From positions 496,001 to 560,000 of the forward strand of contig CAVNZM010000012.1 in the NCBI GenBank assembly GCA_963693365.1: a DNA stretch of 64,000 nucleotides. The letters are read 5' to 3'. Every line of letters begins with the position of its first letter. Position 1 is the stretch's first letter. Origin of the DNA: Amoebidium appalachense. Its lineage: Eukaryota > Protista > Ichthyosporea. Positions 42,501 through 45,500 of the stretch are shown here, piece by piece. The notes below the pieces were generated by a model. That model was not told the DNA's origin. It searched no databases and was given only the letters and a program-made list of their open reading frames with translations. The translations under genes were made by a program, and so were the position numbers.

Positions 42501-45500
42501 AAGACACCCGCATGAACAGAGCACCCATCTTTCATTCTCTCCTTAACTCTGTCCTTAATCATGCTCATGTTTTCCTCTTCACGTTCTTCCCTCACACCCT
42601 CCCCTTTGTCCTTTTCTCTCTCATTCTCCCCGCTTTCCACTATTTCCTTGCCCCCCCTTGTGTTAAGCAGGAGTTAGACCTTTTTTTTTTTAACTTCCAC
42701 ACACTGACACCTCTGTGTCATACAGGAACTAGAAGAAGACATCGAGTGCATCGACTCACGAGGCAGCTTCTCAGGCCAGGGTGAGTTGCTATACACTGCC
42801 CCCCGTGCTTGTGCTCATCCACACCACGCCCCATGTCCACGCCAGTTGTTCTTGTGTGCACACCTCATTCTTTGTCATGCTCCTACCCCCCCACACACAC
42901 ACACACACACACACACACACACACACACACACACACACACACACACACACACACACACACACACACACACACACACACACACACACAAAGTGACACCCCT
43001 ATCACTTTACAGACCAAGCTTATGCACTTGGGGCATGGCCATAACTATCCGTGTGAGTCGGTCTGACCCACCACATACCTACCCATCCACACACTTGCCG
43101 ATCAACCACCCACAGCACACACACACGTGTATGCACATGTACACACACACACACACTAACCACCCACACACCCACACACACACACACACTAACCACCCAC
43201 ACACCCACTCACCTACACACACACCCATCCATCCATCCACCCACCCCCCATATCAACACACACACCAGCCCACACACACACCTACCACTGCACACCCACC
43301 CACCCATCCACCGCATTATCCCCCCCCCCCCCCCCAACCACCACCACCACCAAAAAAAAAAAAAAAAAAAAGAAAAGAAAAGAAAAGAAAAAGAAATTGC
43401 CTAACCCCCCCCCCCCCCCCCCCCCCCCCCCCGCTTTACTTCCATGCAACCGGGCATGGTTGCTCTGTGTCGTGCATCTGTAAGCACATACTCATTTTCC
43501 GCTGCACTGCATTAGTTTGCACACACATATTCACCGTTTTGCTCACCTTGCTTGCATAAGCAACCCTGCTCATCTTTGATCAAGACGGGTTGACCCTCCC
43601 AAGTTCAGTTGATGCTGCTGTCTGAGTTGGAGAGTCGTATATACGCGGGCTAAGGGGTCGAAACTCAGACGCAATTGATGACTTGGGCCCTCCCTGAGGA
43701 TGGGCTCTGCTTATGACGCATGCTGTGCGCATGGCTGATGTTGCATACTTGAATGTTTGCCTTTGCATTGTCGTTCGTGTATGCGTACTTCGTACCGTGT
43801 TCCGCATTCAAACCCCCCCCCTCCCCCCCCCTTCCTTCACCCGCAGAGCTACTCAAGCTGATGGAGAACCAGGCCATGTCATTTCTAACCCTGGCCACCA
43901 AAGTAGCAGAACTGCATGCCCAGATGGACACAATCAGGCAGGGGGTAGGTGCCCTATTGTCTGTGTACAATGTGATTGTTTATTCAAACCATTACCATTA
44001 CTATTGAAACACATGCACCTAGTTGATGTGGTGGTGGTGCTTTTGTCACTGGGTGCTCGGGTACGTGGGATGTGTGTGTGTGTTTAGAGGGGGGAGGTGG
44101 GGAGGGGGGAGAGGGGTTACGCGGTGTATGTGCCTGGGGATGTGGGGATGGGTGGATGGGTGGGTGAGTGAGTTTGTGTAGGTGTGTGTGTGTTTGTGTG
44201 CGTCTGTGTGTGTGCTTGTATGTGTGTGTATTTTGGATCAGTGGATGCATGTGGTGTGTGAGAGTATTATCTGTCACTGTGTTGGTGTGTATATCACCTC
44301 CATCTCCCCATCATCCCACCTTCCCCTCACTCTTTTTCTATCCCCTCCAGTACCACGAACTATGCATACGTCGGCAGAAGAGAGATGCCGTACAGGAAAA
44401 GGCCAAGGAGAGAGACGAGCAGAGAAGAAGGGCTGCCCTGCCGGCACAGCCCGTGCAGATGGCTGCACCAGACTACAGTATCATGGCCACTAGAGGTGGG
44501 GGGTGGAGGGGCGGGTGGGGGCGGGGAGGGGTGTTTGGGGGGGGGGAGGGGGGGATTGGGTGGGTTTGTGTGGGGTGGGGGGTGGGGTGGGTGTGTGGGT
44601 GGGTGTGTGTGAGGTGAGCTTGTCCGTGTGACAGTGTGTTTGTGTCTGCACGCATGTGTGTGTGCCTGCCTGTGCATTTGTGCCTGCGAATGTGGGTATA
44701 CGTGTACGTACATCTATGTGTTTTGTTACCATGCCATGCATGTGTATGCGTACGGGTAGACTCGCCTACCACATCTGTGCCTGTGTGTGCTGATGTATGG
44801 TATGTGCAGGGTACAGTGGGGTCATGGGGGGGCCTAGCCACGGCCCAGCCGCAGCAGCAGCAGCCCACAGCAACACCCTTTGGCCAGCAGCCCGCAGGGT
44901 TTGGCTTCAACACCGCACCAGGTGTGTGTGCGTGTGTGGGTTGAGTGTGTGTCTGTATGTGTGTGGGTTGAGTGTGTCTGTATGTGTGTGGGCTGAATGT
45001 GTGCCTGTACGTGTGTGGGTCGTGTGTGTGCCTGTACGTGTGTGGGTCGTGTGTGTGCCTGTACGTGTGTGGGTCGTGTGTGTGCCTGTACGTGTGTGGG
45101 TCGTGTGTGTGTGTGTGCCTTCACGTGTGTGGGTCGTGTGTGTGCCTGTACGTGTGTGGGTCGTGTGTGTGCCTGTACGTGTGTGGGTCGTGTGTGTGCC
45201 TGTACGTGTGTGGGTCGTGTGTGTGCCTGTACGTGTGTGGGTCGTGTGTGTGCCTGTACTTGTGTGGGTTGTGTGTGTCTGTACGTGTGTGGGTTGAATG
45301 TGTGTCTGTACGTGTGTGGGTTGAGTGTGTGCCTGTACATGTGTGTGTGTGTGTGGGAGGATGCTGGTGTGTCTGTAGAATGACTAGAGGTGTGACGTAT
45401 GGGTATGGTGGTGATGGTGAGAGGAGGGGGGGGAGAGGCTGCGGTTGCTCTACGTATGTATGTTTGCAACTGGCGGTTGTTTGGGCGGGGGCGGTATCAT

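Follow-up and report, generated by a model that had tools for sequence, protein, structure and literature searches.

The locus raises the question of which kind of RNA is specified by a core of about 160 nt that occurs, in two diverged versions, within a mobile repeat of the window (the whole stretch of DNA analysed, 64,000 nt in length). An earlier note on this DNA had proposed a ribozyme candidate inside a retroelement, a proposal borne out by the hammerhead core letters of the RNA and by the Penelope-like insertion anatomy of the repeat. It had also held that the core could not be fitted to the hammerhead consensus and could represent a new class. Neither view can be retained: GAAAC, GUU and CUGAGGA form a hammerhead core in S-G-C order (site, GAAA, CUGAnGA), the block order of type-SGC hammerheads as these are described in the accessible text of PMC10085705. 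The reading favoured here, with a probability of about 0.78, is that the 160-nt core carries all conserved hammerhead nucleotides in this order, likely takes its stem II from an upstream strand, has a predicted cut at 43628/43629 and lies in the tail of what is likely a non-autonomous retroelement, Penelope-like and of the Naiad/Chlamys kind. The parts of the core are as follows.

43555-43715, plus strand: subfamily A ribozyme core (putative split hammerhead in S-G-C order)
43555-43562, plus strand: 5' strand of the closing helix P1, pairing with 43708-43715 (pair probability 1.0 in the nested ensemble)
43563-43591, plus strand: upstream hairpin domain P2, directly 5' of the stem II strand, with two alternative pairings with 43701-43707
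43592-43597, plus strand: detached 5' strand of stem II, in which G10.1 is 43592, pairing with 43654-43659 (two double-sided changes)
43598-43612, plus strand: 5' strand of the link helix, then a predicted kink-turn (3-bp helix 43605-43607, 3-nt bulge, GA), pairing with 43677-43687
43620-43628, plus strand: stem III strand, whose 3' end is G16.2 U16.1 U17 by analogy with the hammerhead core; predicted cut at 43628/43629
43629-43632, plus strand: stem I strand 3' of the predicted cut, pairing with 43690-43693 (A-U in A, G-C in B)
43633-43653, plus strand: variable hairpin insert and short linker, from stem I to stem II
43654-43670, plus strand: 3' strand of stem II, G12 A13 A14 and stem III strand
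43677-43687, plus strand: partner of the tandem GA (invariant GATGAC) and 3' strand of the link helix
43690-43700, plus strand: stem I strand and the C3-A9 core CUGAGGA
6951-7105, plus strand: subfamily B ribozyme core, with a predicted cut at 7022/7023, in an element spanning at least 6912-7189

Both cores have GUU at positions 16.2-17, GAAAC at 12-15.2 and CUGAGGA at 3-9, and the set of hammerhead core letters (C3 U4 G5 A6 N7 G8 A9, G12 A13 A14, A15.1-U16.1 and H17) is complete in each. The stems stand in hammerhead register, with 3-4 bp in stem I, 8-13 bp in stem III and 5-6 bp in a stem II that starts with G10.1-C11.1 and pairs by way of the upstream strand. The order of the blocks is that of type SGC and not one of the cyclic orders CGS, GSC and SCG of type I, II and III hammerheads. 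Searched on both strands with a descriptor for this order, the window gives two matches, which are the intact cores, and 150 local shuffles of it give none. By this analogy, the A and B cores are predicted to be hammerhead-type RNAs, with self-cleavage in A at U43628/G43629.

The helices and invariant motifs listed in the earlier note are present in A (43555-43715) and in B (6951-7105; closing stem 6951-6958/7098-7105), including the replacement of CCCAAGT/ACTTGGG by CTCATGT/ACGTGGG and that of GACCCT/GGGGTC by GACCTA/TAGGTC. The latter pairing, described there as a long-range pseudoknot, exists, but its identity is that of hammerhead stem II. The long central stem is likewise as described except for its last pair (U with the third A of GAAA), which is incompatible with a hammerhead fold. 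An Rfam search, which the note had named as a check, gave no known class at gathering score over either core, whether the whole window or the A and B copies alone were submitted. The whole-window scan was swamped by poly-C/poly-G hairpin matches, and the B copy gave a weak, partial Hammerhead_1 alignment over stem II and GAAAC (E=4). Among other self-cleaving folds, an HDV-like ribozyme (a nested double pseudoknot with the catalytic C before the last strand) was rejected by inspection: P1/P3 could not be drawn, A has a CUAAG-like stretch, B has a G at that place, and the cores have no Rfam match. Twister, pistol, hairpin, group I and RNase P were dropped, as was the HDV-like fold, by eye against their consensus structures.

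The arrangement of stem II is the distinctive feature of the core. The partner of the letters before GAAA is a strand (43592-43597) that lies about 100 nt upstream of CUGAGGA and covaries at two positions; its last position, 43597, varies among copies (T/A/G in public DNA contigs). Directly 3' of it is one strand of the link helix (43598-43604/43681-43687), which joins the far ends of stems I and II and shows one double-sided change. In type SGC, CUGAnGA is followed within 0-2 nt by the stem II strand and then the link strand; here both strands are about 100 nt upstream. The 3' end of the core is CUGAGGA-U, the 5' end carries U-GACCCU and the link strand, and P1 closes both ends. The simplest reading is an SGC hammerhead in which the bulged U that separates A9 from G10.1 marks the opening. 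In such a molecule the backbone would be interrupted between A9 and G10.1, with P1 and the upstream hairpin securing both ends as a multi-helix junction, and the link helix and a kink-turn would tie stems I, II and III together at their far ends.

This kink-turn is suggested by the invariant GATGAC, which in both A and B fits the kink-turn consensus: a 3-bp helix extends the link helix, a bulge of 3 nt follows, and the end of stem III carries tandem G-A pairs. In the junction above the core two pairings can be drawn, and covariation favours neither. In the nested ensemble, computed by a program that cannot fold pseudoknots, stem I has a probability of 0.0 and a helix that possibly invades G8/A9 is favoured (0.58-0.66). 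Since this competing helix is favoured and stem I carries no weight in a pseudoknot-free ensemble, an off-state or slow folding of the core is possible. Palindromes are found in both subfamilies, in the upstream hairpin's loop and in the apical hairpin (43577-43582 and 43636-43645; 6973-6978 and 7028-7037), and a role as RNA dimer contacts is possible.

The two subfamilies allow the proposed pairing to be examined. A and B are identical at 127 of 161 core positions (79%) and at 54-58% in the flanks. Nine of the 25 pairs in the three stems (I, II, III) and in the link helix differ between them: five are kept by double-sided changes, three by single-sided changes, and one is broken, which agrees with the claim of the earlier note that the RNA structure is under selection. 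Compensatory changes are present in all four core helices. When the same 14 substitutions are scattered at random, the probability of at most one broken pair is 3e-6 to 4e-4, depending on transition bias, for a set whose helices other than stems I and III were picked with knowledge of both sequences; when only stems I and III are counted (12 pairs, in a register fixed by the core motifs) it is 0.006-0.04. An automated pair count gave 19/500 shuffles; its alignment had 8 rows, of which just two are informative, and one misaligned column in stem I. The covariation claimed earlier exceeds chance, although it comes from a comparison of two sequences and not from a large alignment: the signal is real but rests on two subfamilies. 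Folding energies are unremarkable, both for the core (z -1.3 to -2.0, both strands) and for whole elements (z -0.34 and -0.76). In public DNA contigs matching copy A (7,770 and 11,994 in two runs, which is not a copy count), variants at a frequency of at least 5% avoid the core letters; they are located at positions either unpaired or terminal (43597, 43633), or they re-establish pairing (43572).

The nature of the carrier can be approached from its copies in the window, which, besides subfamily B, are the following.

43431-43811, plus strand: 5'-truncated copy of subfamily A, between poly-C runs
41251-41870, plus strand: partial tandem of subfamily A, starting exactly at the predicted cut after pure poly-C
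33022-33176, minus strand: single decayed copy ('subfamily C'), starting at the cut-equivalent position after a short C run
30857-30995, plus strand: 5'-truncated copy (A), with its start inside stem I/poly-C
48650-48788, plus strand: 5'-truncated copy (A)
33656-33766, plus strand: 5'-truncated copy (B)
28489-28541, plus strand: short 3'-end copy (B)
29022-29095, plus strand: short diverged 3'-end copy
63500-63554, minus strand: short diverged 3'-end copy

Across the window, eleven element 3' ends share a single alignment position; ten of them run directly into C runs, and for the eleventh the tract is C-rich but degraded. The stretch at 31145-31180, which is diverged but similar to the element 3' end and lies before a C run, is outside this count. 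The 5' ends are variable and often lie at poly-C microhomology. Starts at the predicted cut are found in two of the 11 copies, exactly at 41251 and less exactly, at the equivalent place, in the decayed copy, and elsewhere in the other nine; under a uniform model, two or more such starts have a probability of about 1-3e-4. Common 3' ends, 5' truncation, partial tandems and microsatellite insertion are the traits of Penelope-like elements, and with poly-C as the target the carrier looks like a non-autonomous member of this group. This class is inferred from insertion anatomy, since a search of 148 of the 659 window ORFs gave no match to a reverse transcriptase or a GIY-YIG domain. A reading of the copies as solo LTRs was dropped, because they are 5'-truncated with a fixed 3' end.

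The number of matching public contigs suggests a high-copy family. Joints of the element 3' end to a truncated copy occur in public DNA contigs; a full-unit tandem joint of about 440 nt was seen in contigs of one run presumed to be RNA, and two runs presumed to be RNA contain element contigs (contigs only). The public DNA contigs on copy A and the decayed copy listed no pile-up of contig ends, and none of the tandem joints displayed in public contigs on copy A lies at the predicted cut. The second core of the partial tandem (41629-41760) has lost 31 nt, GAAA among them, between short G-rich matches; this loss is consistent with read-through of a second, inactive ribozyme in the template. The decayed copy had been regarded as a third subfamily. 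At 80% identity or more, a single contig per run covers 33058-33176 in all three DNA runs; the copy has C in place of G8 of the core, and G5 is changed as well in another isolate. It is a decayed relic in one copy.

Several observations concern the surroundings of the element. About 370 nt upstream of subfamily B (6538-6911) may belong to it and are without a convincing ORF or Pfam match; 6685-6773 has a weak Rfam CPEB3 match (E 1.5). Host introns are rich in poly-C, poly-G and CA repeats, and copies lie in poly-C just before apparent 3' splice sites (43812-43846, 28542-28561, 48789-48828 and 33021-32957), so that insertions may alter host intron ends. Host genes recognised by Pfam encode a KLF/Sp-like zinc finger (56792-57580, plus strand), a CRAL-TRIO protein (52311-53271, plus strand) and RNA polymerase subunit N (63310-63405, minus strand); an FG-repeat nucleoporin-like stretch was seen by eye at 36848-37411 (plus strand). 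For the zinc-finger protein, the best named match covering most of the protein is from Amoebidium parasiticum (49% identity, 68% coverage). On this single gene the host is placed, weakly, as a likely ichthyosporean.

The following pathway can be proposed. The element RNA would cut itself at the predicted site, U43628/G43629, by hammerhead chemistry, in which G12 is the base and the 2'-OH of G8 the acid (PMC11300833, accessible text). The cut would fix the 5' end of the element RNA. Reverse transcriptase and endonuclease supplied in trans by a partner would prime at a nicked poly-C/poly-G tract, and copying would start from the fixed 3' end and could extend to the cut. Longer and tandem copies would come from uncut or circular templates; more speculatively, the many helices could hold the cut ends together, which would favour circles and explain the tandems. 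A required role for cleavage is disfavoured, since hammerhead mutants of a lizard Penelope element are without effect on insertion in vitro, according to the accessible part of PMC11167929.

Elements of the Naiad and Chlamys kind provide an independent set of tails. Among the traits described for them in the accessible text of Craig et al. (2021, PMC8557442) are 5' truncation, partial tandems and microsatellite targets, with (C)n in many Chlamys, and non-autonomous Chlamys-type derivatives such as MRC1 are reported. The same text gives Naiads as having no canonical hammerhead, some being flagged 'HHR_core' or 'HHR_half_core'. In the portion of its supplement that was available, 13 Naiad 3' ends were found by a motif text search, a motif-biased sample and not all records. 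By eye, seven of these have clear split wiring with unrelated letters: Naiad_Plae and Naiad_Ovul, the record preceding each, and the three near-identical records preceding Naiad_Aacu, Naiad_Anas and Naiad-1_Movir. Two are probably split, three have the order CUGAnGA-site-GAAA with an attached stem II, and one is incomplete, with nothing found. In the clear cases the detached strand of stem II has a hairpin immediately 5' of it, and upstream of this hairpin lies the pairing partner of the letters after A9. Five of the seven have no G within two letters after A9, so G10.1 must come from upstream in these tails. By analogy, Naiad tails with the same fold likely self-cut. Split wiring was not found in the Chlamys passages of the available text. 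Three nematode and spider Naiad 3' ends (the records preceding Naiad-3_Nbra, Naiad_Hcon and Naiad_Lpol) show by eye the type-CSG order (CUGAnGA-site-GAAA) with an attached stem II, which may represent a second non-circular hammerhead form in Naiads.

Pattern scans for relatives elsewhere gave matches attributed to chance alone. There were 7 metagenome and 5 viral contig matches, all 12 of which were examined; most are coding-like and none is element-like. A second scan matched no viral contig and four prokaryote loci, two of them loose fits lacking a real stem II, and two loose descriptor fits among a further 66 viral loci were not convincing.

The core might instead be an ordinary type-SGC hammerhead, in which G10.1 or the whole of stem II comes from the strand after A9 and the upstream GACC either extends a stem II of one pair by a pseudoknot, in the manner of the PK hammerhead, or acts as an inhibitory switch. 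A U and then a G do follow A9, as in the available type-SGC rows and in Penelope hammerheads, and the PK hammerhead is reported to function with a single G10.1-C11.1 pair and a pseudoknot helix (PMC11300833, accessible text). An attached stem II can also be drawn; it is rich in G-U, which makes up 3 of its 6 pairs in A and 2 of its 4 in B. However, the changes from A to B shorten this attached stem, breaking its pairing, and maintain the upstream one; the duplex with the detached strand is the more stable by about 4-5 kcal/mol (-10.9 against -7.0 kcal/mol in A, -8.8 against -3.8 kcal/mol in B); and several of the sampled Naiad tails with split wiring lack a G after A9 altogether. This explanation is considered unlikely.

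Still less probable, at somewhat lower odds, is a hammerhead-derived fold that performs no useful cleavage in vivo and serves to bind or package the element reverse transcriptase or a kink-turn binding protein. The helix competing for G8/A9, the short stem I and the kink-turn-like motif kept in both subfamilies would suit such a role, as would the dispensability of Penelope cleavage for insertion in vitro and the report, in the part of PMC11167929 available, that no RNA reads ended at the cut of that element. Catalytic letters unchanged between the subfamilies and among common variants, together with two copies that start at the predicted cut, argue against it. That the hammerhead likeness is a coincidence, and the RNA a new ribozyme class or an unrelated structure, is very improbable: no Rfam family reaches gathering score over either core, but all core letters are in register with stems I-III, none of 150 shuffles fits, and the split wiring recurs in the Naiad sample.

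Set against these explanations, the split hammerhead is the preferred reading, and the evidence leans towards a broader statement: a natural hammerhead opened at A9/G10.1 and rebuilt by closing helices and a kink-turn cage, outside the six printed permutations, which would be the missing ribozyme of Penelope-like elements with an N-terminal endonuclease, here in a unicellular relative of animals. The literature searched, outside which fell most subscription journals and preprint supplements, described neither a hammerhead with a split core nor a ribozyme from Penelope-like elements of ichthyosporeans. If the core cleaves, stem II need not stay joined to CUGAnGA, contrary to the rule, and a class possibly present in very many genomic copies has been overlooked by hammerhead searches. 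The split core offers a testable answer to the published puzzle of Naiads without canonical hammerheads; if true, it would extend the pairing of ribozyme and retroelement beyond animals and explain the hammerhead-less verdict given by standard descriptors. The Naiad/Chlamys-like elements would be extended to a likely ichthyosporean. A core tolerating a whole domain at A9/G10.1 would also be a new handle for ribozyme engineering. The contribution of the window itself consists of the likely non-animal holozoan host, the poly-C target and the two covarying subfamilies.

The closest known system is type SGC. As described in the accessible text of Eckert et al. (2023, PMC10085705), it is a non-circular permutation of demonstrated self-cleavage (HRIMA-1 and variants), with examples from environmental sequence sets and none in the genomes of known organisms, and CUGAnGA is assumed to be inseparable from its own stem II strand. 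The published rows read GGGUC-GAAA ... CUGAnGA-U-GACCY, followed by a short linker and the link strand. The A and B cores share with them the block order, stem II letters of the GACC/GGUC type, the U after A9 and a helix that connects stems I and II at their far ends; the link-helix letters of subfamily A occur in 3 near-identical rows among the 33 SGC-variant rows available, which may be due to chance. In contrast to type SGC, CUGAnGA is separated from the link strand and from the 5' strand of stem II, both of which precede the site block; closing helices and a predicted kink-turn are additional, and the linker between stems I and II contains a hairpin; and the RNA belongs to a high-copy eukaryotic genomic repeat instead of environmental sequence. 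With the PK hammerhead (Zhan et al. 2024, PMC11300833, accessible text) the cores share a helix at the position of stem II for which a distant strand provides the partner and which is coaxial with another helix, itself connected to stem I; that ribozyme differs in its circular block order and in the covalent joining of A9 and G10.1.

Short non-coding tandem hammerhead units and Penelope-like mobilisation are shared with non-LTR retrozymes and with the pLTR hammerheads of canonical Penelope elements, as far as the available parts of PMC4209133 and bioRxiv 10.64898/2026.07.22.740005 describe them. According to the same sources those hammerheads are of type I and often minimal and dimer-acting, whereas the A and B cores have a long stem III and a non-circular order, and their copies are mostly dispersed and not in long arrays; the tandem unit of about 440 nt does not carry a type I hammerhead, as each unit of a non-LTR retrozyme does. 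Relative to the Naiad and Chlamys elements, the host is likely an ichthyosporean, outside the range reported in the accessible text of PMC8557442, and no coding partner was found in the window ORFs scanned. In sum, the hammerhead core letters and the S-G-C order are known, and the detachment of the 5' strand of stem II from CUGAnGA is new.
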